A stretch of DNA of 64,000 nucleotides from an uncultured Acidobacteriota bacterium. Its GTDB lineage: Bacteria > Acidobacteriota > UBA6911 > RPQK01 > JAPXNP01. A program made the translations under genes and the position numbers. Location: assembly GCA_963777605.1 (NCBI GenBank), contig CAVZRV010000013.1, forward strand, positions 96,001 through 160,000. Reading direction: 5' to 3'. The notes beneath the pieces were generated by a model. It ran no database searches. It saw only the letters and a list, made by a program, of their open reading frames with translations, and had not been told where the DNA came from. This document shows, piece by piece, positions 43,395 to 54,870 of this stretch (within the stretch, counting starts at the first letter, position 1; each line of letters begins with the position of its first letter).

Positions 43395-43738
43395 GATCAG
43401 CGCCGGAGGCACAGCGGAATGATGGATTAGCACCGGAGGCACTGCCAAAATTGGTGGAATCAGCACCGGAGGTGCGCCCGAAAATAGCCCAGGGTTTCAA
43501 CCCTGGGTCCGGGGGCAGCAATCGAGGAGAAAGTCCCGGAGGGACGACCGAACCGTCATGTTTGCTACCCCTCCTGCGACCAACCCCTCATGGACCTGCT
43601 CCTCGTGGAACCGGGAATCGAAAGGGACGACGTAACGCGTACCTCGGCCGTCCCTCCGGGACTGGGGACGGGGTAATCGGCCGACGATGACCCAGGGTTG
43701 AAACTTGGGCTATTTTCGATACGTCACTCCGGGACTCC
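43395..43738. repeat. REP/REPIN-like inverted-repeat element
   Basis: AAAATAGCCCAGGGTTTCAACCCTGGGTC (43481-43509) and AGTCCCGGAGGGACG are mirrored by CGTCCCTCCGGGACT and GACCCAGGGTTGAAACTTGGGCTATTTT (43689-43716); preceded by three degenerate AGC(A/G)CCGGAGG units. Confidence 0.75.
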
Positions 43739-44737: not shown

Positions 44738-44933
44738 GCCGTACGAATTGGCCCGAAAAGGCCGGCCGTCGCGATCGGTTGCGAGGCGCCATTTGAATTC
44801 AGGAATTGACCCCGCAGAGGTCGGATGATTGCCGCCCGGGTGCAAGCGCAGCACGACCCTGTACATAAACGGCAGGGCCCCATCTGGAGTGCGGAAGCGA
44901 AAGGTTCCGCTTTTGAACGAACGACAAAGGCCC

Positions 44934-45254
44934 ATGAGTGAACTGAAAGAAGAGATCAGGAAATCGGCGGCTAGGCGGATCCTCTTCACCGCCCACTCCG
45001 TTCGGCAGATGTCTCGGCCGGAGAGGATGATCAACTCGTCCGAGGTGAAGCGGGTCATCGCGGAGGGAGAAGTCATCGAAGACTATCCGTCCGATCCGCC
45101 CGGTCACAGTTGCCTCCTGCAGGGCAGAGGGAAGAGGGATCGAGCGGTGCATGTTGTATGCTCGCCGAAGGAAGACTATCTGGCCGTGATTACGGCTTAT
45201 CTTCCGAATCCCGAAGAGTGGGAGCCCGGGTTTCGGAATCGGAGGAAGAAATGA
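44934..45254 (+). CDS. DUF4258 family putative toxin (RelE-like fold)
   Basis: FTAHSVRQM, GEVIEDYP.DP.GHSCL, VHVVC and VITAY.P.PEEW. Confidence 0.85.
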   Translation: MSELKEEIRKSAARRILFTAHSVRQMSRPERMINSSEVKRVIAEGEVIEDYPSDPPGHSCLLQGRGKRDRAVHVVCSPKEDYLAVITAYLPNPEEWEPGFRNRRKK

Positions 45255-45463
45255 AATGCATTCATTGCGGCGGAGAAGTGCGCCGCGGACGGGCACCGTT
45301 CCAGATCGACCGGGAAGGGTACGTCCTGACACTTCAGGCGGTGCCGGCCTGGATCTGTGGTCAATGTGGAGAGGCATATTTTGAGGATCGCGAAGTCGAT
45401 TTCATCCAGGAGGTGATCCGGTCGATGGATACAAAAGCCCGGAATCTGGCGGCATCCGCTTAG
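45251..45463 (+). CDS. YgiT-type zinc finger (MqsA-like) antitoxin
   Basis: MKCIHCGG...VPAWICGQCGEAYF; ATGA overlap with the toxin. Confidence 0.85.
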   Translation: MKCIHCGGEVRRGRAPFQIDREGYVLTLQAVPAWICGQCGEAYFEDREVDFIQEVIRSMDTKARNLAASA

Positions 45464-45494: not shown

Positions 45495-45835
45495 ATGCAA
45501 CTAGATACACTCGACAAGAAACTCAACGACATCTACGCCGGCCGAGTGGTCCGCAAGGACCTCCTCCACCGGGTTAAAAAGGGCACTAACATTCCGTCTT
45601 TCGTACTGGAGTTCCTGCTGGCCCGATATTGCGCGAGCGACGATCCGGACGAGATCCAGGCAGGGATCGATGCCGTCTTCGAGACGCTGCAGAAGCACTA
45701 CGTCCGTCCGGACGAGTCGAACAAGGCCCAGTCCCACGTCCAGCAGAAGGGGAAGCACAAGTACATCGACAAGCTCCAGGTCCGCTGCGTGGAGCGGGAG
45801 AAACGCCACTGGGCCGAGATGGAGAACTTCGACTC
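45495..45835 (+). pseudogene. brxL: N-terminal fragment of BREX Lon-like protein BrxL
   Basis: LDKKLNDIYAGRVVRKDL...GTNIPSFVLEFLLARYCASDD...YVRPDE...IDK; similarity ends after ~112 aa and no ATPase or protease domain follows. Confidence 0.75.
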
Positions 45836-45990
45836 CGCAGTTGGAGGGCGACAAATCACCTTACGCCGAAGGTCATCGTCAGGCTTTCCGCACCAAAGGC
45901 CCTTCAAAGCGCGCGAAGGAACTGATTCGTCGGGTCAAAGCAGCAAAAGCGAAGAAATACTGAGCCGGCGACCGCACTCGGCAGCTGGTA

Positions 45991-46440
45991 CTAGGACTTG
46001 GCCGGCTTGAAATTCTCCGGGATTGTGCCGAGCAACCCGAGAAGGTTTTCAAGTGTTCTTGCCATCCATTCGTTCAGTTCGGGCCAGGTTTCAAGCCTGA
46101 AGATCTGGGATGGTCGTCTCAGGCTGAGGAGGCTTCCTTTGCTGTCTTTGGGGAGCCAGACGACTTCACCGAGCGGAGAGAGTTGCTCTTTGAGCTGACT
46201 GCGAAGCCGATCGTCGATCCGGTCGAACCAGGATTCAGCGCCTGGCCCTGTCAGGCGCACCCAGATTCCGGAGGTGCCGCTGAGCACGTTCCAGAGCACC
46301 AGCCGAATCGGACCCGGACCGGGGATCTCCTTTCCAATGCTTCGATTAGAGGGTTTGCCGAGCTTGATAGAAGGGTCCCGGTTGGCCATGTACTCGTGGA
46401 ACTGCGTCCAGAACCGCTCATGGAGGGCCGCGGCGTTGAC
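45991..46440 (-). CDS. DUF4268-like domain protein, probably truncated
   Basis: RFWTQFHEYM...KPS...W...ETWPELNEWM pattern; no clear start. Confidence 0.5.
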   Translation of the reverse strand, partial: VNAAALHERFWTQFHEYMANRDPSIKLGKPSNRSIGKEIPGPGPIRLVLWNVLSGTSGIWVRLTGPGAESWFDRIDDRLRSQLKEQLSPLGEVVWLPKDSKGSLLSLRRPSQIFRLETWPELNEWMARTLENLLGLLGTIPENFKPAKS

Positions 46441-47081
46441 CCGCGGTCGGGCCGAGTCATCTCCCCAGAACGACGAATGAGTGAGGCGGCATGTGGATTC
46501 GTGGGATGTAGACTCGATTGCCACCCTGGCGCGTCCATGGCATGCGCGCGGCGATAGCAGGAAGATCGTAGACCATGCCGGTGTCACGGTTGACCACTTG
46601 GTATTCGGGGTTCAATTGCAGTCAGAGTTTCAACCTGGTCTCAGCCATGTGTTACTTCCCGGCGGCCGCCTTCCCGTTGAAGCGAGTCATCATCCATTGA
46701 AGGGTCGATGCGACTGTCCCCTGAATGTTAAGGCGTGACATCCAATTCTGGTCGATGATGCCAAAACGCGCAATGGACTCCGCATTGATCCACAAGAGTC
46801 AGAGCACCGTCGCGAAGACCGAGTTGGGACCTGCCGGTTACCCGGTTCGACTACACTCCGGGTATCCGGCAGGTGATCGAGTCGAAGATTCTCCATTATT
46901 CGGCATCAGCAGGATCTTCTCCTGTCTCTTTTCTTGGCTCGGGAACATGCAACTCGATCCCAAAGTGGACGGTGGACCAGACCGGGCCGCAGGCCATGCC
47001 TCCGGTTGTCAGTGAGAGGCAGAAACGCAGGGATTACGGGCCGTTCCAGCTCAGACCAGAGGAGTGCGGGGAGAAGGCATG

Positions 47082-47174: not shown

Positions 47175-47520
47175 CTAACTTGGCGTCTTTGCCACGGATT
47201 TTAACTCCCGATCCACGAATCCGGCGAACCTTGTCGCCGCGATGAGGACCGCGGCGATGTCGGCTGAGGCGAGGCGGAAGGTGGAGGGGTGGGCGAAGGA
47301 GTTGCCGCAGGTTTGGAGGAGCTTCAGGTGGGAGAACATCCAGGGGCGGGAATCGATCTGGAGATCGTAGGCGAAAACCCGTACATGCTTCAGCCCGGGT
47401 GCAGTATCCACCCAGCGGCGGATCAGGTTGAGAGTTTCGTCGGCGGCATCTTCCGGCGGGATGCCCTGGTCTCCGGTGCCCAAAAGGGGCAGGGAGACGG
47501 ACTCGACTCCGGGAGGGCAG
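47175..47520 (-). pseudogene. 3' fragment of a Macro-domain-like protein with HEPN-like tail
   Basis: VESVSLPLLGTGDQGIP resembles the Macro SIAxPxIGTG loop; downstream GNSFAH resembles the HEPN RxxxxH site; no 5' end. Confidence 0.45.
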
Positions 47521-47529
47521 TGTCGAAGC

Positions 47530-47872
47530 AGAGATTCAGATCATGGTGGGGATTCGGGGCCGGGCGCTCGAGCATGCCGACCAGGGGCGCTGGGAAGATG
47601 CCGCGGTCCTGCTCGGCCAGTGCGTCGAGGTGATCCGGGGCTTCGGAATTGACGATCCCAGGATCCAGTCGGAGATCGAAGAACTCGAGGAGATGGCCCG
47701 AAACCTGCGTTTCCGGGGAGAGGAGTACTACTCGCCGGTGGTCCGCAAGCGTGCCTTTTATGCCTCGGAGCTGGCCTCGAAGGGACGCTTCGACCAGGTG
47801 GCTTCGATGAGGATCCGGCGTTCCGAGGACTACCTGGATCCGGATAGAATCCGAAGAAACCGGCGAAGATGA
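47530..47872 (+). pseudogene. C-terminal helical fragment resembling VWA-protein tails
   Basis: ALEHADQGRWEDAAVLL...EIEELEEM...RKRAFYAS; no convincing start. Confidence 0.35.
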
Positions 47873-48041
47873 TTCAGTTCAGAGACTGAAGGGCGAGTGA
47901 TACTTTGCCGACAAAGAGGGAGGAGTCGAGTGGATACCGTCCGCCTGGAGGCAAAAGGACTGTTCGGCAGAAGTACGGACGATTCCGGAGATCGAAGGGG
48001 GAGTCCTTGGCAGAACGAAGACAGATTGGAAGGAGAACTGA

Positions 48042-49115
48042 ATGAGTGATCCGGGGCTGGAGATACTGCAATTCGTATACGACTCGGCGAAGATCGACTC
48101 GGAGTGGTCGGTTTGGGAAGATCGAAGCTTTACCTGGTGGGGCGGGGGGCTCGCCCAAAAAGTCTGGGCTGAAGAGGCCCATGACGACGATGGAATCGTC
48201 ATTTACCGGCTGCATGCTCGAACGGACTGCGTCCGGAGTTTCGATGAAGGCGTTTGCAATGAAATAATGCCTGAGTTGCTGCCATTGATCTCTCCACTTT
48301 GTGGTCCGATTCTTGACCCGGCGGATTTAACCAGGATCAAACTGGCTTCAAGCATGATCGTGCACGAGGAAAGCTCTGAGTGGATCAAATCCGTCTTCTC
48401 CTGGGCGGTGGCCGTCCAGGCGGCGGAGGCGCACGCGCTGTGCCCGACGATGGCCGATCTGTTATCCGGAGAACCGGATTATTCCAGCCACCCGAAGTCC
48501 GGTTCTCGAGGCGAGTTGGATGACATGCTCAATATTGTTTCGGAGACCGTGCGTCCGCAGGGTGAATCCCCATGTACCTTTGTTGGGCCTGAAATGGAAC
48601 GCGTCGGGGCGATGCTGCAGCGGCCTCCCTGCGTGTTGGCAACCAAGGATGAGGACGGAATCACGGCAGAGTACCCGTTTGGGGATGCCACCAGTCTCGT
48701 GGAAGTGGTGCCCGACACTCACCCGCGCCTGGGGAACGGCTTACGGATCTGTGTCCAGTTGCCGTTCCTCGTATCCGACGAAGACGATCCCGACGGTGAG
48801 ACCCTCTCTTTCCTGCGACTGAATCGCCAGGATTTTGATCTCCCGCTCGGGGGATACTTCCTGGGCACCTGGGGGAGCATGCCCAACGGCTATCTCTCCC
48901 ACAACTCCTTCTTCCCGAACGTCTTATATCGACCCGGGATCCTCACGAACCTGGTTCTGGGAACGTTCGTTCGGGTCAAGTGGATTACGGAGAACATTTT
49001 CGAGCTCCCCTTGATGGAGAATTACGATGCGGCCTCGCAGCGGAGGATGGAGAAGCTCGAAGAACTCGCGGGGGATCCCGACGCCTTGATGCGATTGCTT
49101 GGCGGGGAGGAGTGA
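48042..49115 (+). CDS. Conserved hypothetical protein, possibly tandem YbjN/T3SS-chaperone-like domains
   Basis: RBS AAGGAG; FTWWGGGLAQKVW, SSHPKSG.R...DDML, GITAEYPF, HPRLGNGL and FLG.W. Confidence 0.6.
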   Translation: MSDPGLEILQFVYDSAKIDSEWSVWEDRSFTWWGGGLAQKVWAEEAHDDDGIVIYRLHARTDCVRSFDEGVCNEIMPELLPLISPLCGPILDPADLTRIKLASSMIVHEESSEWIKSVFSWAVAVQAAEAHALCPTMADLLSGEPDYSSHPKSGSRGELDDMLNIVSETVRPQGESPCTFVGPEMERVGAMLQRPPCVLATKDEDGITAEYPFGDATSLVEVVPDTHPRLGNGLRICVQLPFLVSDEDDPDGETLSFLRLNRQDFDLPLGGYFLGTWGSMPNGYLSHNSFFPNVLYRPGILTNLVLGTFVRVKWITENIFELPLMENYDAASQRRMEKLEELAGDPDALMRLLGGEE

Positions 49116-49158
49116 GGACAAGGGCGCGCCGACTGGGAATCGGCGTTGACGGAGGGGA

Positions 49159-50168
49159 ATGAGCAAACGGCAATTGGAACCGATCGAACGACTCTCCTAC
49201 GAAGCCACAAGGCTGTTTCGAGAGCACCCACCGGTGATTCGCGACCGCAACAAGCAGGTCGTTTTCGAAATTGCCTGCCCGGAAGGATCGCGGCACCGTG
49301 GAGAGATTGTCTACTCCCGTTGGATATCGATGCCGGTTCCGGCCCAAATGGATCCAGTGCGGGCCGTTTCACGAGTTGAGGCCAGCAAGTCAATTTACGA
49401 TTACGGACCGGTTGCTCCTGGCGCGGTGGAGTGGCATGTAAACTTTGCCGATTCGGAGCTGTTCGGCTTTTACGCGACAGGACTTTTTGCCCAGGACGAA
49501 CTGCAGGTGGCCGAGCATCCGATCCTGGGCTCCCTTAAGGAGGCTCTCCGGGCGTCGAATCGACCAAGACCTCACAGTCGAGGTGGGACGCCCGACCCCG
49601 ATTCTCATCTCGGGTGCGGAGCGGCGCTGCCGGGTGGCGATCGACCCGAATCCTGACGAGGGGCGCCCGTTTGGACTCTATGGCAACCGGTTCGCGCAGG
49701 CCCCCGAGGACGCCGTTCGCGGGGCGACTGCCCGGATCGATCCGCCGACGGTCAGCAACCTGGTCTGCATTGCCGCCCCGGCCTGTGGCTTGGGGAACTA
49801 CTCGCGCGAGCAGATTCAGTTCATTATGGAGACGGCCTACACGGGTTTTCGGGCGGCCGTTCTGGAATCGGGGCGAGCTCACGGAGACGAACGACCGGTG
49901 GTTGTCCACAGCGGGCTTCTGGGGTTGCGGCGCCTTCGGGGGGAACCGGGTGCTGATGGCTACTCCTCCAGGTTCTTGCCGCCGAAGCTGCTGGACTGTG
50001 AGCCGACTTGTCTTTCACACGGTCGATGCTGCGGGGTCCGCGAAACTGGCGGAGGCCTTGGAACTGATTCAGTCGCGGCCGGCGACCGAACGCGTCGAAA
50101 ATACCGAGGCTCTGGTTGACTGGATTCTCGGTCACGGCTTCCGGTGGGGAATCAGCGACGGCAATTGA
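49159..50168 (+). CDS. Poly(ADP-ribose) glycohydrolase, eukaryotic-type PARG catalytic domain; about 4 frameshifts
   Basis: WHVNFAD..LFG....LFAQDELQ (QEE-loop equivalent), TAYTGF, GFWGCGAFGGN and LLQVLAA, spread across three frames. Confidence 0.75.
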
Positions 50169-50236
50169 GTAGCCGCACAAAGCCACGCCGGGAATGCTGA
50201 AGGGGGCCCGAACATTACCAGGTCTCAGCGAGTCGT

Positions 50237-51004
50237 TCAGCCAACTGTCGAATGCAGGCGGGAACCATTCCGATGATTGAGTTGGCCGGCCGGGATTTTG
50301 TCTGCTCCCCATCGGGCCCCTCCGATGGAGCCCACCAGTACCGGGCAGTAATTGGCCGGCCCGGCAAACTCCAGGGAGCTTTCCAGTGCCTTCTCGAAGC
50401 TTTCGGCCCGATCGAGGAAATGAACGGCGGCGGCGAAGACCTGCGGAGCAAAGCCACCCCTTGAGAGTTCATTCCTCGGGAATCCGAGACGCCCGCCGGG
50501 CAAGGCCACAGGAGGGATCCTTCCCAACGCAACTCCCCAGTCGAATCCCCGGATCAGTCGTCGACACAGTTCGGCAACTGCGGCCGAGACCTCTCCGGCA
50601 ATCGGCGAGTAATGCGTCAGTCGCGCTTCCTCCCGGGCAAAATCGGCAACCTCGGTATCTGTGAGGAATCCGGCTGCAGCCAGGACGGAGGCCCGGTGGG
50701 CGGGGTTGCACCCTCCGGTCAGGCCGCCCAGATCGTCGTCCGTTCGTCGTGCTGCCTCGACACGATCGATACCCTGTTCGAGATAATGGAAGACCCGGGT
50801 GAACACCTCCCCGGTGTCGAAGGCATCGGTATGCCACCAGTCGAGGTACCGGTTGAACAGGTCGTCCGGATCAAAAGCGCTTCGGCTCAGGAGAGTCTTG
50901 GCGACGAACGACGCCATTCGGATCGGCCCGCCGTTTCGGTCTCCGGCAGCAAGTCCAAGAAGCAAGCCCTGGGCGCGGTTTCGGTATTCATCGCGAAGAT
51001 TCAT
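50237..51004 (-). CDS. ADP-ribosylglycohydrolase (ARH/DraG) family, degenerate variant
   Basis: RAQGLLLGLAAGD, FDPDDLFNRYLDW, N.A.R, ARLTHYSP and VGSIGGARWG...IP. Confidence 0.8.
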   Translation of the reverse strand: MNLRDEYRNRAQGLLLGLAAGDRNGGPIRMASFVAKTLLSRSAFDPDDLFNRYLDWWHTDAFDTGEVFTRVFHYLEQGIDRVEAARRTDDDLGGLTGGCNPAHRASVLAAAGFLTDTEVADFAREEARLTHYSPIAGEVSAAVAELCRRLIRGFDWGVALGRIPPVALPGGRLGFPRNELSRGGFAPQVFAAAVHFLDRAESFEKALESSLEFAGPANYCPVLVGSIGGARWGADKIPAGQLNHRNGSRLHSTVG

Positions 51005-51039
51005 CGGAAAAGGATAACCTGGAAGGTCGCGCTACGGTG

Positions 51040-51071
51040 AACCTGGGTTGAAGATGCTTAACCTGGGTTGA
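51040..51071. promoter_or_regulatory. Tandem putative enhancer (UAS) sites for the sigma54 activator
   Basis: AACCTGGGTTGA repeated exactly at 51040 and 51060 (20-bp period, near-palindromic), ~110-140 bp upstream of the predicted start. Confidence 0.55.
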
Positions 51072-51153
51072 TGACTTCGTATATGTTTTTGGAGATGATC
51101 GACTCGATAGGTAATCTATTAAATGCAATGACTTAGCCGAACATCGCATCGAG

Positions 51154-51170
51154 TTGGCATGGCTCCTGCA
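51154..51170 (+). promoter_or_regulatory. Sigma54 (-24/-12) promoter
   Basis: TTGGCATGGCTCCTGCA = GG-N10-GC; AT-rich IHF-like tract at ~51112-51136; next to a bEBP gene. Confidence 0.75.
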
Positions 51171-51180
51171 GTAGATGCTC

Positions 51181-51263
51181 TCGGGTCCGGGTGAGAGCGG
51201 CGGTTACCCCCAGAAACCATGCGGGAGCTGACCTCCTGCAGGCCGCTTTCTGCCCGGGCCGGA
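51181..51263 (+). ncRNA. Putative structured RNA / 5' leader
   Basis: Starts at the predicted +1; 5' TCGGGTCCGGGTGAGAGCGGC pairs with 3' GCCGCTTTCTGCCCGGGCCGGA and encloses hairpins GGTT/AACC and GCGGGAG/CTCCTGC. Confidence 0.5.
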
Positions 51264-51276
51264 ATGGAGGAGTGTC

Positions 51277-52227
51277 ATGCAGTTTCCAAAATCAGTCTTG
51301 AATCCGTTGACCCTGGGCGAGCCGATGACAAGTGATGCGCTCACGGTCTATCCCGTCCTGGGTGCTTCCGAAAGTGCCATCCAGCTGTTCGATCTCGACG
51401 AGGCCCTTGCGCAGGGTTGGATCGAGATCGGCGAGGTTTCTGAATCGGGAAACGTCCCCGAATTAGGCGTGATCAACCAGTCGCCCCATCGGGTCATCCT
51501 CTTTGACGGGGAAGAGCTCGTCGGGGCCAAGCAGAACCGGATCGTCAATGTCACGATCGTGGTCGCTCCCTTTGCCAGGCTGAGGATCCCGGTGTCGTGC
51601 GTGGAGCAGGGACGCTGGCGGTGGCACAGCCGTCACTTCGACGCGGGCGAATTTGCCTACCCGAGCCTGCGACGGGACAAGTTCGAGCGCGTCAGTCAGA
51701 ACTTGGAGATGCGGCAGGGATTTGCCGCCGACCAGGGGATGATCTGGCACGACATTGCCGCCAAGTCCGCCCGCATGGGCGTTCACAGCGAAACCGGCTC
51801 GATGCGGGACATCGGGGCGCGGCATTTCATTGATGACCGCCAGATCCAGAAGGAGATCGCGCACCAGCCCCGCCAGGTCGGCTATCTCGCCTTCATCCGG
51901 GACGGCTTCGCCGGTGGCGACATCTTCTCGTCGTCTGAAATCTCGGCGCGGAAATTTTACAAGCTGGTCCGGACATATTACCTGGACTCGCGCGATCCTG
52001 AAGCCGAGTTCCGCCCGGTCCCGGCCGATGAAGTGATGGGTCGCATCGGGAGCAGCGCGGTCGAACCGGTCGAGAGCATCGGGGAGGGAAGTGACTTCCG
52101 ATTCCGTCAGCGCGACATCCAGGGATCGCTGACCCAGGTCGGTGAGATACTGGTCCACCTGGCGGTTTTCCCCGTTGTCCGGGATGGCTTCCGGCGGCCG
52201 GCACGACCGCATTTCCGGGTTGACTGA
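51277..52227 (+). CDS. ARPP-1 / DUF6569 family protein
   Basis: RBS GGAGGAG; LDEAL, EVSESGNVPEL, DGEELVGAKQNRIVN, IPVSCVEQGRW and DQGMIW. Confidence 0.75.
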   Translation: MQFPKSVLNPLTLGEPMTSDALTVYPVLGASESAIQLFDLDEALAQGWIEIGEVSESGNVPELGVINQSPHRVILFDGEELVGAKQNRIVNVTIVVAPFARLRIPVSCVEQGRWRWHSRHFDAGEFAYPSLRRDKFERVSQNLEMRQGFAADQGMIWHDIAAKSARMGVHSETGSMRDIGARHFIDDRQIQKEIAHQPRQVGYLAFIRDGFAGGDIFSSSEISARKFYKLVRTYYLDSRDPEAEFRPVPADEVMGRIGSSAVEPVESIGEGSDFRFRQRDIQGSLTQVGEILVHLAVFPVVRDGFRRPARPHFRVD

Positions 52228-52245
52228 AACCGAAATTCGCCATAG

Positions 52246-52292
52246 CGTTCCCGGACGAGCCCCTTCAGATCAGCGGAGGGGCCCGGGAGCGC
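52246..52292 (+). other. GC-rich intergenic hairpin without U-tract
   Basis: GCGTTCCCGG...GCCCCTT / GAGGGGC CCGGGAGCGC. Confidence 0.45.
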
Positions 52293-52311
52293 TCAGGGAA
52301 AGGATTTGGAA

Positions 52312-53916
52312 ATGCCACGGACTGCACAAGGAACACTGCTCACCTTCACCGGGTTCCATGACCCCTATTCCGACGGACCCGTCGAAGGAAGCCGCCAGCC
52401 GGGCCCGATTCTGAGCCTGCTCGGAGAGCGCTCGTTTCGCCGGGTCATCCTGTTTTCAACCCCGTCCACCGTGGAAGTGACCGAAAAGACGAGGGAAGCC
52501 ATTGCCGAAGAAGAGCCGGATGTACAAGTCGCGGTTCGGCATCTCGAGCTGCCCGATCCGACCGACTATTCGTCCATTCTCCAAGAACTGCGTCGAAGCC
52601 TTCGGGATCTTGCCGCCTGGAAGCTGGGAGACGTCTTTATTGCCACGGCCTCCGGCACCCCTCAGATGCACGCCTGCTGGATCCTGCTCGTGACGTCCGG
52701 GGAACTGCCGGGTCGCCTCCTTCACGTTCGCCCACCCCGGTTCGTCAGCCGCGACGCACCCATGGTTACGGAAGTCGATCTCTCGGAGCCGGAGTTCTCC
52801 CCTCTGGTGCTCCGGGAGAGCAGCCATTTCCGTGACGTCGGCGCCGATGAACTCGACATGGAGGAGCCGTTTATGTCGGCGTTGGCCCTGCCGAGCGCAC
52901 CTTCGATTGAGCGGTCTCGCGTAGACCGGGTGATCGAAGCCACCTCGCGGCCCGAACCTGACTTGGCGGCAATTTGCGAGCAGGAAGGGATCGTCGGGGA
53001 TGATCCCGGAATGATCGATGCCGTGAGGCGGGCGGTGACCGTTGCGCCTTACGATGAGCCGGTTCTCATTTTCGGCGAAAACGGAACCGGCAAGGAGTTG
53101 ATTGCCAGGCTGATCCACCGGACGAGCCATCGTTCGGGAGGCCCCCTGGTTTCGGTGAATTGTTCGGCGATTCCGGAGGACCTGGCCGAGAGCATCCTGT
53201 TCGGACACAAGAAAGGTTCGTTTACCGGAGCCATTCAGGATGAGCAGGGGAAATTTCGGTTGGCCAATGGAGGCACGCTCTTTCTGGACGAGGTTGGAGA
53301 GCTTTCCTTTGCGATTCAGGCCAAGTTACTGAAGGCGGTTGAATATCAGGTAATTGAACCGGTGGGGGAAGGTCGAGAAAGCACAGTCGATATCCGAATT
53401 GTGACGGCGACGAACCGAAACCTGTGGGATATGGTCGGGTCTGGATCGTTCCGTAAGGACCTCTACTATCGGCTGGTCGGGGCGCTGGTTGAGGTGCCGC
53501 CGCTTCGATCACGTCGCAGTGATATCAGCAAGCTGGCGATTCATTTCCTGGAGGCGTTCTCACGACGGTACCGGACGAGGCGTCAGTTTACTACCGCGGC
53601 GTTGCGTCGCCTGCAACATCACGATTGGCCGGGCAATGTCCGCGAGCTCGGGCACGTGGTTCGGGCGGCCGCGATGCTGGCCCACAGCGGGAAGATCGAA
53701 GCCGACGACATCGAACTGCTGGCCCGAAAGCCCGACCACGATCTTCCGGAACCACACGACGGTTTTTCGGTCGAGAGGTATCTGGCCGAGGTCCGCCGCA
53801 AACTGTTCGAGCGGGCTCTGGAAATCAGTCAAGGCAACCAGGCCGCCGCGGCACGCCTGCTCGGCGTCAGCGGAGCCGCGGTGTCCAAGTTCGTGAACAA
53901 GGAACGGCCCGCGTAA
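52312..53916 (+). CDS. RtcR-like sigma54-dependent activator (CARF-type N-domain, AAA+, Fis HTH)
   Basis: LLTFTGFHDPY, DPTDY and SGTPQMHACW N-domain; GENGTGKE, ESILFGHKKGSFTGA, LFLDEVGEL, FRKDLYYRL, WPGNVREL and NQAAAARLLG. Confidence 0.88.
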   Translation: MPRTAQGTLLTFTGFHDPYSDGPVEGSRQPGPILSLLGERSFRRVILFSTPSTVEVTEKTREAIAEEEPDVQVAVRHLELPDPTDYSSILQELRRSLRDLAAWKLGDVFIATASGTPQMHACWILLVTSGELPGRLLHVRPPRFVSRDAPMVTEVDLSEPEFSPLVLRESSHFRDVGADELDMEEPFMSALALPSAPSIERSRVDRVIEATSRPEPDLAAICEQEGIVGDDPGMIDAVRRAVTVAPYDEPVLIFGENGTGKELIARLIHRTSHRSGGPLVSVNCSAIPEDLAESILFGHKKGSFTGAIQDEQGKFRLANGGTLFLDEVGELSFAIQAKLLKAVEYQVIEPVGEGRESTVDIRIVTATNRNLWDMVGSGSFRKDLYYRLVGALVEVPPLRSRRSDISKLAIHFLEAFSRRYRTRRQFTTAALRRLQHHDWPGNVRELGHVVRAAAMLAHSGKIEADDIELLARKPDHDLPEPHDGFSVERYLAEVRRKLFERALEISQGNQAAAARLLGVSGAAVSKFVNKERPA

Positions 53917-54103: not shown

Positions 54104-54503
54104 GACTCCTGATGCAACACTGGAAAAAGCACTTAACCTATTTATAATCAATGGATAAAGGAAAAAATGAGCTGTTTGAAAGTTGATCGGTTTTGGCCTT
54201 TTTTATGCATGTGATGCAGCGTTTGACGCAGTACTGGTGCGGCTTTCCAGAGATTCGGACTGTTGCGACGCTCGGAGGCAAAACGGCGGAGAGGCATTTC
54301 TCTTCCGCCAAAAGTCCGCGGAAACCCAGGCAGACTCAGCGTTTCCCGTTTGCCAAAAACCCTCTCCGCCATCTTTTTCGGCTCTTACGACTTGACTGAA
54401 TTGCATCATTTGATTGCGCATTCAAGTCGTTTAGTTTCGTCAAGTCGGCACGACAGCTGAGAAGGGAACGCACAGCAATCCCCTTGATGTAATGATTCGC
54501 CGT

Positions 54504-54653
54504 TTGCCGAGCTATCTCGTTTTGGCGGATTCCCGGTTTTGCGTTCTGTTCGCGGTCGATTTAGAGGAAAATAATGTTCGGGTCGTGACGGCATATCGCC
54601 CGGATCCCGATGAGTGGACCGAAGACCTGAGAACAAGGAGAACCAAGAAATGA
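54504..54653 (+). pseudogene. 3' fragment of a second DUF4258 toxin
   Basis: LPSYLVLA...VLFAVDLEENNVRVVTAYRPDPDEWTEDLRTRR; no N-terminus. Confidence 0.7.
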
Positions 54654-54870
54654 AGTGTCGTGTCTGCGGAAGTCATCTGGAAGCCACGACGACAGACCTC
54701 CCGTTCAAAGTCACGGAACACACGATCGTGATCCTCAAGAAGTTGCCGGTGGCACAGTGCAAGCGATGCAGCGAATATCTGATTGAAGACACGGTCTTGA
54801 AAGAGTCGAAGAACTGTTCTCCAAGGTAGACACATCAGCTGAACTTGAAATCATCCCATTCGCTGCGTGA
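54650..54870 (+). CDS. YgiT-type zinc finger antitoxin; frameshift near 54800
   Basis: MKCRVCG...TDLPFK...LPVAQCKRCSEYLIED, then RVEELFSKVDTSAELEIIPFAA* in another frame. Confidence 0.75.

Follow-up and report, generated by a model that had tools for sequence, protein, structure and literature searches.

An important question raised by the DNA considered here, a stretch of 64,000 nucleotides from an uncultured Acidobacteriota bacterium (contig CAVZRV010000013.1, positions 96,001 to 160,000; hereafter the window), is what is switched on by a transcriptional activator of the RtcR family, here called ACT, that is encoded beside several genes connected with ADP-ribose. How bacteria control their immune genes inducibly is, to our knowledge, poorly understood, and for the RtcR-like activators of defence superoperons the only description to date is by gene neighbourhood. 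A preliminary description of the window had proposed that ACT commands a regulon of ADP-ribose erasers in place of RNA ligase genes. The analysis reported here leads to a smaller unit, and it is probable, at about 0.62, that what works here is a self-activating operon of two genes, dependent on sigma-54, in which ARPP-1 is followed by ACT, with 78 bp between the end of the one gene and the start of the other. Gene order was established from a listing of open reading frames (ORFs) with Pfam and NCBIfam scans, ORFs between 43.7 and 55.6 kb being scanned for domains, and the elements of the proposed operon are these (window positions):

51038-51071, + strand: predicted pair of upstream activator sites, TGAACCTGGGTTGA (51038) and TTAACCTGGGTTGA (51058), 20 bp apart, at -116 and -96 from the promoter
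51154-51170, + strand: sigma-54 (-24/-12) promoter TTGGCATGGCTCCTGCA, ending 107 bp 5' of the ARPP-1 start codon
51178-51269, + strand: hairpin in the 5' leader of ARPP-1, its 3' arm reaching the GGAGG ribosome-binding site
51277-52227, + strand: ARPP-1 (PF20208, 259 bits), intact, the predicted sigma-54 target
52306-53916, + strand: ACT, activator with CARF, AAA+ sigma-54 interaction and helix-turn-helix (HTH) domains (Pfam/NCBIfam scans), 536 aa, intact

Both genes had been named in the preliminary description, as an RtcR-type activator and as ARPP-1/DUF6569, and both identifications hold. The N-domain of ACT matches the RtcR family (PF06956, 38.2 bits against a cut-off of 23.1, residues 44-159) and the AAA+ part matches Sigma54_activat (PF00158, 209 bits) and AAA_lid_14 (72 bits), with the Walker A motif GENGTGKE, the Walker B motif LFLDE and the GSFTGA loop all present in the translation. 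Against PDB chains of ZraR, NtrC1, FleQ and PspF the AAA+ domain gives E values of 1e-70 to 1e-56. Judged from its sequence, ACT appears to have all the features required of a sigma-54 activator, and rpoN is present in the genome that bears it. It appears to be an RtcR-family protein yet not an RtcR, scoring 324.1 bits with the NCBIfam RtcR equivalog NF038308, for which the cut-off is 650. The absence of rtc genes from the locus, already remarked upon, was borne out, rtcA and Ro/TROVE having no match in the whole genome and the single rtcB lying on a contig (C10) separate from that of ACT. A CARF-like N-domain, on which the earlier proposal depended, was found by structure prediction: a model made with AlphaFold2 (AF2) from 12 sequences has a pLDDT of 86.6, and its top matches in Foldseek are the CARF domains of Csm6, headed by Csm6 with a cA6 analogue (6tug; E 2.7e-7, probability 1.00, template modelling score on the query 0.69). 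Lower matches include Csm6', Cam1, Sso2081, Csx1, Can2 and Cad1; 62 chains in all, with probability 1.00, reach E <= 0.001, and the E values for the CARF effectors of type III CRISPR run from 2.7e-7 to 5e-4.

A search with the CARF domain of ACT returned 921 protein clusters; among contigs it gave 134 relatives in the one-genome-per-species set and 419 in metagenomes, and the best 80 of each set make up the 160 related loci (numbered L) to which the following figures refer. CARF identity to ACT is 50-77% across these loci, and 50-60% for relatives preceding HsdR/M/S, AAA_15, VWA, kinase or BREX genes; some loci are duplicates, 117 of the 126 full-length activators being distinct. The usual cargo is made up of defence genes, those of Type I restriction-modification (R-M) and BREX among them. 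In the 80 species-level loci, for which all ORFs were clustered without supervision and cluster representatives then compared with Pfam, the dominant co-directional layout is ACT followed by a small unnamed protein (46), HsdR (44), HsdM (37) and further genes; an AAA_15 ATPase occurs in 22, and sets with a kinase, a pPIWI-associated nuclease or VWA also occur. HsdR is present in 25 of the 80 metagenome loci. "Superoperons" composed of Type I R-M and CoCoNuT genes, and also of Druantia III, that carry an RtcR homolog at their 5' end are described in the available text of Bell et al. (PMC11090510).

The promoters of this family are strikingly uniform. The strict sigma-54 pattern YTGGCAY-N5-YTGCW has 60 matches in the 160 loci (1.73 Mb, both strands). 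On the + strand, 45 of them fall directly past the ACT stop codon, between +1591 and +1668 counted from where the CARF match begins, and 5 more are at +1762 to +2499. A palindrome, TCAAC-N4-GTTGA (with at most one mismatch), stands upstream in 44 of these 50 promoter-bearing loci, usually twice, at about -112 and -91; its density is 7.3 per kb upstream of promoters vs 0.038 per kb elsewhere in the same loci, a difference of about 190-fold. In L013-L169 the cassette was seen to separate the activator gene from the first gene of the cargo, about 100 bp past the stop codon (e.g. L016, L022, L025 and L029). No mention of a cassette of two palindromes and a sigma-54 promoter was found in the available text of PMC11090510.

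In the window the same cassette, with the family's geometry (-116/-96), stands in front of ARPP-1. The likely sigma-54 promoter of the preliminary description proved to be the sole strict-consensus match in the 64 kb, and a position weight matrix (PWM) built from 44 family promoters scores it at 16.8 vs 8.5 for the runner-up; a loose scan for TGGCAC-N5-TTGC with 2 mismatches had been uninformative (47 matches vs 49 expected) and was set aside in favour of the strict pattern and the PWM. Genome-wide (6.7 Mb) there are 85 sites at PWM >= 11, and paired palindromes accompany TTGGCATGGCTCCTGCA alone; none of the 85 is a paired-palindrome promoter near rtcB. The PWM and palindrome scans likewise revealed no sigma-54 promoter or site before the neighbouring chaperone-PARG gene pair or the ARH gene, or after ACT. 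Since the genome has a single cassette and this lies in front of ARPP-1, the regulon is predicted to comprise ARPP-1 and ACT itself, and so to be a positive autoregulatory loop. What had been put forward as an eraser regulon therefore keeps its sigma-54 activator, its promoter with family-typical sites on ARPP-1 and its lack of linked rtc genes, and loses PARG, ARH and the chaperone, which no promoter or site serves.

The mechanism envisaged for this operon is that dimers of ACT would occupy the two TCAAC-N4-GTTGA-like sites about 100 bp upstream of the -24/-12 promoter and that the CARF domain would bind a nucleotide or RNA ligand derived from infection or damage. Ligand binding would free the AAA+ domain to oligomerise, and the oligomer would open the sigma-54 promoter complex, raising ARPP-1 and ACT together. 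In this lineage the promoter cassette of a family found elsewhere at the head of Type I R-M, BREX and CoCoNuT operons would have moved to a place before ARPP-1. The proposal is founded on the gene identities, the CARF fold, a promoter whose upstream sites are conserved throughout the family and the recurrence of the ARPP-1/ACT pair; the identity of the ligand, the action of ARPP-1 and a role in phage defence we infer.

The leader between promoter and start codon is the part of the structured RNA claim, weak as a whole, that found some support, as it folds with a minimum free energy of -51.2 kcal/mol (z -2.78, 1 of 200 shuffles equally good). The outer stem of the hairpin recurs in L010, where 3 one-sided changes preserve the pairing, a conservation that is suggestive in a comparison of two sequences. 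The claim found no backing in Rfam, which gave no match in 46.5-55.8 kb either at the gathering threshold or at E <= 1, and there is therefore no Y RNA. A second candidate, the spacer at 47873-48050, folded no better than shuffles (z -0.96) and was rejected.

ARPP-1 adjoins ACT in 7 of the 160 loci, L010, L011 and L037 among the 80 species-level loci and L090, L099, L140 and L148 among the 80 from metagenomes, L140 and L148 being near-identical. The order ARPP-1 then ACT, as in the window, is found in L010, L011 and L090, and the two genes are divergent in the other four; ARPP-1 is 34% identical to the window copy in L099, L140 and L148 and 48% identical in a partial match in L037. Counting the window, a sigma-54-like promoter faces ARPP-1 in six of the seven loci with the relevant DNA (the window, L010, L037, L099, L140 and L148), in L010 at the same relative place as in the window; L011 is outside the count, its upstream DNA not being covered. 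In a tree of the 126 full-length activators the ARPP-1-linked proteins fall into two clades, the window with L011 and L099 with L140/L148, each with support of 100; L010, L037 and L090 were left out as their proteins are cut or frameshifted. Downstream, ACT is followed by BrxA-BrxB-BrxC in L099, and in L140/L148 by DUF4007, a Schlafen/AlbA-type protein, a 1310-aa PglX-like methyltransferase and a reverse transcriptase. The latter two loci have a second perfect palindrome and a weak promoter past the ACT stop codon, ahead of this defence-type cargo, and ARPP-1 would therefore be co-regulated with defence genes there.

ARPP-1 itself, in an alignment of 21 sequences, has an invariant Cys108 and Gln86/Gln153, all kept in the window copy. 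A prediction of a complex between ARPP-1 and the CARF domain of ACT scored 0.00 in a run without controls and gives no verdict either way, and the literature search found no paper on DUF6569. The most frequent neighbour of ARPP-1 in the phylum, present in 12 of 59 loci, encodes a product about 330 aa long (e.g. L238:6856-7893) in which only a C-terminal sigma-70 region-4 HTH is recognisable; XRE-M78 regulators (4 loci) and two-component genes are also found. A two-gene pair of ARPP and a WYL ligand-sensing regulator is reported in the available text of PMC9503650, and this pairing together with the sigma70_r4-HTH neighbour suggests, on gene neighbourhood, that ARPP-1 is generally accompanied by a transcription factor. 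A short histidine kinase (HisKA_3/HATPase_c) with no sensor domain was seen directly 3' of ARPP-1 in L099 (756-1466, -) and L140 (437-1222, -).

The genes upstream of the cassette, on which the eraser proposal was built, are as follows:

47175-47540, - strand: candidate C-terminal Macro remnant, possibly no gene (sub-cut-off Pfam match)
48042-49115, + strand: 357-aa protein with two TY-chaperone-like (YbjN / type III secretion chaperone fold) domains (AF2 and VIA-align)
49159-50168, + strand: PARG pseudogene of canonical type in three overlapping frames (tblastn with the intact L010 ortholog)
50237-51004, - strand: ARH, an ADP-ribosylglycohydrolase-fold protein of a short, non-canonical subfamily (PF03747, 85 bits)

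Most of this part list was correct. The eukaryotic-type PARG is real in kind, the 332-aa ortholog in L010 matching PARG_cat_C (PF05028, 50.4 bits, cut-off 26.3) and, in sequence comparison with the PDB, solely PARG chains (human, mouse, rat and others) through a WGCGAFGG signature. The window copy is broken: frames 3, 1 and 2 have identities of 57, 62 and 46% to the intact L010 ORF (three high-scoring segment pairs in tblastn), the frame changes near 49560-49575 and 49905-49912 in the assembly DNA, and there is probably a further short out-of-frame stretch, seen by eye, near 49955-50000. None of the fragments has a Pfam match, so that a canonical PARG in a single open frame is not found in the window. 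As the four genes around it have open frames, real decay of PARG is more likely than random assembly error, and the partial decay reported earlier would hold for PARG; ARPP-1 and ACT are intact. The divergent ARH was also correctly recognised. It belongs to a subfamily of about 265 aa (1078 matches, about 50% identity across phyla) which, vs T. thermophilus ARH (2cwc) and DraG (2woc), has GPANY in place of GDADT and is missing about 35 residues past the first GDxxG motif. Two motifs, GPANYCP and GCNPAHR, show no or almost no variation in the 15 of 15 members aligned. The canonical metal ligands, in GDxDT and the upstream Asp, are absent throughout the subfamily, and the window copy stops about 20 residues early at the C-terminus. 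By its sequence this ARH is a conserved, non-canonical ARG-fold protein, and the chemistry of the subfamily probably differs from that of DraG or ARH3. The Macro fragment fared less well, its Pfam match (PF01661) being weak at E 0.067 and 13.6 bits (cut-off 22) over profile positions 93-116 of 118, and the VWA fragment was not confirmed, Pfam scans of the ORFs covered giving no VWA match.

The chaperone-like protein has no Pfam family, and its identification as such is supported by an AF2 model from 81 homologs (pLDDT 93.9, pTM 0.92). Foldseek alone returned weak chaperone rows and a wide VIA search settled the fold: the N-half superimposes on 2plg_B with Z 11.3 and a root mean square deviation of 2.8 over 129 residues, rows 1-19 of VIA-align are mostly YbjN-family or type III secretion chaperones, and the second half repeats a similar helix-meander-helix layout. 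The model fits the "TY-chaperone" proteins of ARG-centric systems as these are described in the available text of PMC9503650. Its second domain (model residues 171-320) also has weak matches (Z 4.4-6.8), to Atg10 and, within Cap2 / CdnG-E2 complexes, to the E2-like parts, which may reflect no more than a shared arrangement. The family is large (1295 representative clusters); fused homologs, of which 29 were scanned, carry CpXC, trypsin-like, WD40, receiver or peptidase A24 domains and no ADP-ribose domain. A 497-aa ORF occupying the same place in L010 was compared with the 357-aa protein and has no similarity to it.

The wider setting agrees with that given at the outset, BREX and toxin-antitoxin remnants next to a tRNA island. 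An island of remnants is flanked by ordinary chromosomal genes on one side and by tRNA-Ser genes on the other, and an Acido-Lenti-1 small RNA (Rfam RF01687, 53.6 bits) lies at its left edge (43462-43507, -). It contains an N-terminal remnant of the BREX protease BrxL (113 residues, 45495-46010, +; PF20442, 117 bits), the only BREX gene found in the window, followed by a DUF4268-like fragment (45991-46611, -). A pair of DUF4258 and MqsA-like zinc-ribbon genes, recognised by eye in translation, occurs twice, whole at 44829-45463 and with a truncated first gene at 54492-54829, and the two copies bracket a stretch of about 9 kb holding the BrxL fragment, the eraser genes, ARPP-1 and the activator. 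Beyond 53916, 3' of ACT, only the truncated toxin-antitoxin pair and small unnamed ORFs were found, with no defence cargo. A search of sequencing runs listed one DNA run, containing 5% of the sequence words, and no RNA run.

As side observations on the activator family, two clusters of small proteins, of about 100 aa (46 of the 80 species-level loci) and about 160 aa (30 of 80), lie between the activator promoter and HsdR (L058:11582-11953, L063:2026-2601); they match no Pfam family even at E <= 1, and may correspond to BrnT-like proteins to which Bell et al. refer. Near-identical activators (branch lengths 0.005-0.07; L044, L049, L052, L058, L065 and their neighbours in the tree) occur in genomes labelled Syntrophobacteraceae, Planctomycetota, Desulfobacterales, Nitrospirales and Syntrophaceae, which suggests that the activator/R-M unit has recently been transferred between phyla.

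A number of observations weigh against a self-activating ARPP-1/ACT operon. ARPP-1 is common without ACT, being present in 104 of 401 genomes of the phylum vs 5 of 401 with the CARF domain, and within the phylum the two are adjacent solely in this genome and in G336, which is that of L010. Around ARPP-1, ACT was found in none of the 30 best loci (+/-1.5 kb) and none of 60 further loci (+/-8 kb), and the same is true of this ARH subfamily, PARG and the chaperone. L090 has no recognisable promoter before ARPP-1, and the activator gene of L010 (5920-7520) is split, as assembled, into frames of 336 and 220 aa with PARG and ARPP-1 intact, the reverse of the decay in the window, so that the module may be decaying in this lineage. 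The HTH_8 match at the C-terminus of ACT, at 20.8 bits, is slightly below its cut-off of 22, and the palindromes are taken as putative ACT binding sites from their position and conservation.

The original proposal, that the entire seven kilobases is a single inducible regulon, with ACT switching on PARG, ARH, Macro and the chaperone to reverse ADP-ribosylation by phages or toxins, has in its favour the clustering here of the ARPP, ARG, Macro-fold and TY-chaperone parts of the ARG-centric systems in the available text of PMC9503650, and the position of PARG in L010, again directly upstream of ARPP-1 and ACT. Such a regulon is nonetheless quite unlikely. The only sigma-54 promoter and site pair in the window serves ARPP-1, the sites are 3' of PARG here and in L010 alike, ARH is encoded on the other strand, and of the supposed erasers the window PARG is broken and ARH is without canonical metal ligands. 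The tabulation of neighbours that the preliminary description had called for gave a divided answer: ARPP-1 recurs beside the activator in the seven loci described above, whereas PARG does so in one of the 160 (L010) and ARH, the chaperone-like protein and a window-like Macro gene in none, and no eraser lies in any of the 11 loci of chaperone homologs (11 of the 401 phylum genomes). The chaperone-like gene, PARG and ARH appear from their arrangement to be an ARG/ARPP neighbourhood outside the sigma-54 unit, partly decayed and not conserved with ACT; these parts match the ARG-centric list of Iyer et al. 2022, which would explain the presence of ARPP-1 at the locus. A different weakness attaches to the suggestion that the locus is a non-functional relic, a superoperon stripped of its cargo within an island of broken genes, with ARPP-1 beside ACT by an accident of rearrangement. 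The BrxL N-terminal and DUF4268 fragments, the broken PARG, the truncated second toxin-antitoxin copy, the frameshifted L010 activator and the want of cargo or promoter 3' of ACT in the window would all be expected of a relic, but ARPP-1 and ACT are intact with all their motifs, the promoter cassette is complete and correctly spaced, and the pairing recurs in two clades and two orientations, so that we consider this suggestion very improbable.

It is also conceivable, though unlikely, that ARPP-1 is the signalling partner of ACT, making, trimming or destroying the CARF ligand, and that the pair is a sensor module available to any defence operon. Processing of a ligand by a partner has parallels in RtcA for RtcR and ring nucleases for cyclic oligoadenylate (cOA). 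A module of this kind would account for an ARPP-1 divergent from an ACT that heads BREX-type (L099) or methyltransferase-type (L140/L148) cargo, with sites in both directions in the latter; it would also accord with the retained invariant Cys and Gln, with the sigma70_r4-HTH, XRE-M78 and two-component neighbours in the phylum and with the ARPP and WYL pair in PMC9503650. Against this, a regulator beside a gene most simply regulates that gene, and 153 of the 160 family loci operate without ARPP-1. We know, moreover, of no biochemical activity of ARPP. A bolder form, to which only a slim chance can be given, is that ARPP-1/ACT is a portable sensor pair in which ARPP-1 would make or process a CARF ligand derived from ADP-ribose or ribose-phosphate, so that ADP-ribosylation brought about by phages or toxins, or NAD+ breakdown, would be read as sigma-54 transcription, the output being ARPP-1 itself in the window and BREX-type and methyltransferase-type defence operons in L099 and the L140 lineage. 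If true, this would provide the first ligand class for defence-type RtcR homologs and the first function for ARPP.

If the two-gene operon favoured here is correct, this copy has little to offer as an eraser regulon, since the erasers lie outside the unit and are partly broken. Its significance is that the family of defence-type RtcR homologs gains a concrete, testable cassette, a sigma-54 promoter preceded at about 100 bp by two TCAAC-N4-GTTGA sites, which in two lineages is predicted to drive ARPP-1, a gene tied to ADP-ribose systems by comparative genomics. ARPP-1 becomes a candidate link between ADP-ribose metabolism and CARF signalling, and its promoter offers a simple reporter system for the discovery of CARF ligands.

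Among known systems the obvious comparison is with RtcR of E. coli and Salmonella, the activator of rtcBA or rsr-yrlBA-rtcBA. ACT resembles it in its architecture of CARF, sigma-54 AAA+ and probable HTH domains and in having a sigma-54 promoter near the regulator gene. Unlike RtcR, it has no adjacent rtcB/rtcA operon under such a promoter, its predicted target is ARPP-1, its own gene lies inside the target operon, and its CARF model best matches the cOA-binding Csm6, Cam1 and Csx1; the ligand of Salmonella RtcR was shown, in the available text of PMC7790460, to be tRNA halves with a 2',3'-cyclic phosphate. With the CARF effectors of type III CRISPR (Csm6, Csx1, Can2, Cam1 and Cad1) ACT shares the fold of the sensor domain, but its predicted output is transcription through the AAA+ domain, not a nuclease, pore or deaminase; no cyclase or CRISPR locus turned up among the scanned ORFs, in which no search was aimed at either. 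ACT belongs to the same family of CARF-ATPase-HTH proteins as the superoperon heads in the available text of Bell et al. (PMC11090510), and differs in the window in having no co-directional defence genes 3' and in that a cassette normally found past the ACT stop codon stands upstream of ARPP-1. No mention of ARPP-1 was found in the available text of that paper, and its supplements may list it.

The ARG-centric systems, as set out in the available text of PMC9503650, are predicted to act against viral ADP-ribosylation; ARPP, ARG, Macro-fold enzymes and TY-chaperones recur in them, about 42% have a one-component Nudix- or WYL-HTH regulator and about 55% a coupled phosphatase (rhodanese-phosphatase, calcineurin-like, HD or HAD). 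The window resembles them in clustering an ARPP, an ARG-fold protein, a TY-chaperone fold and a ligand-sensing regulator, with the Macro-fold PARG present as a pseudogene. It departs from them in that the regulator is, by prediction, a positive sigma-54-dependent CARF activator and not a Nudix-/WYL-HTH repressor, that its promoter serves ARPP-1 only and that the ARG subfamily is without canonical catalytic metal ligands; neither a Nudix- or WYL-HTH regulator nor a phosphatase family occurs among the ORFs scanned. A literature search, covering articles apart from their supplements, found no report joining an RtcR-homolog activator with an ARG/ARPP system, and for RtcR with BREX only the CoCoNuT papers were relevant. 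Both halves of the locus have already been published as computational predictions, the RtcR homologs that head superoperons in PMC11090510 and the ARG/ARPP/chaperone/Macro systems in PMC9503650 (available text of each), and the window appears to join the two, a defence-type RtcR homolog with an Aravind-type ARG/ARPP neighbourhood.

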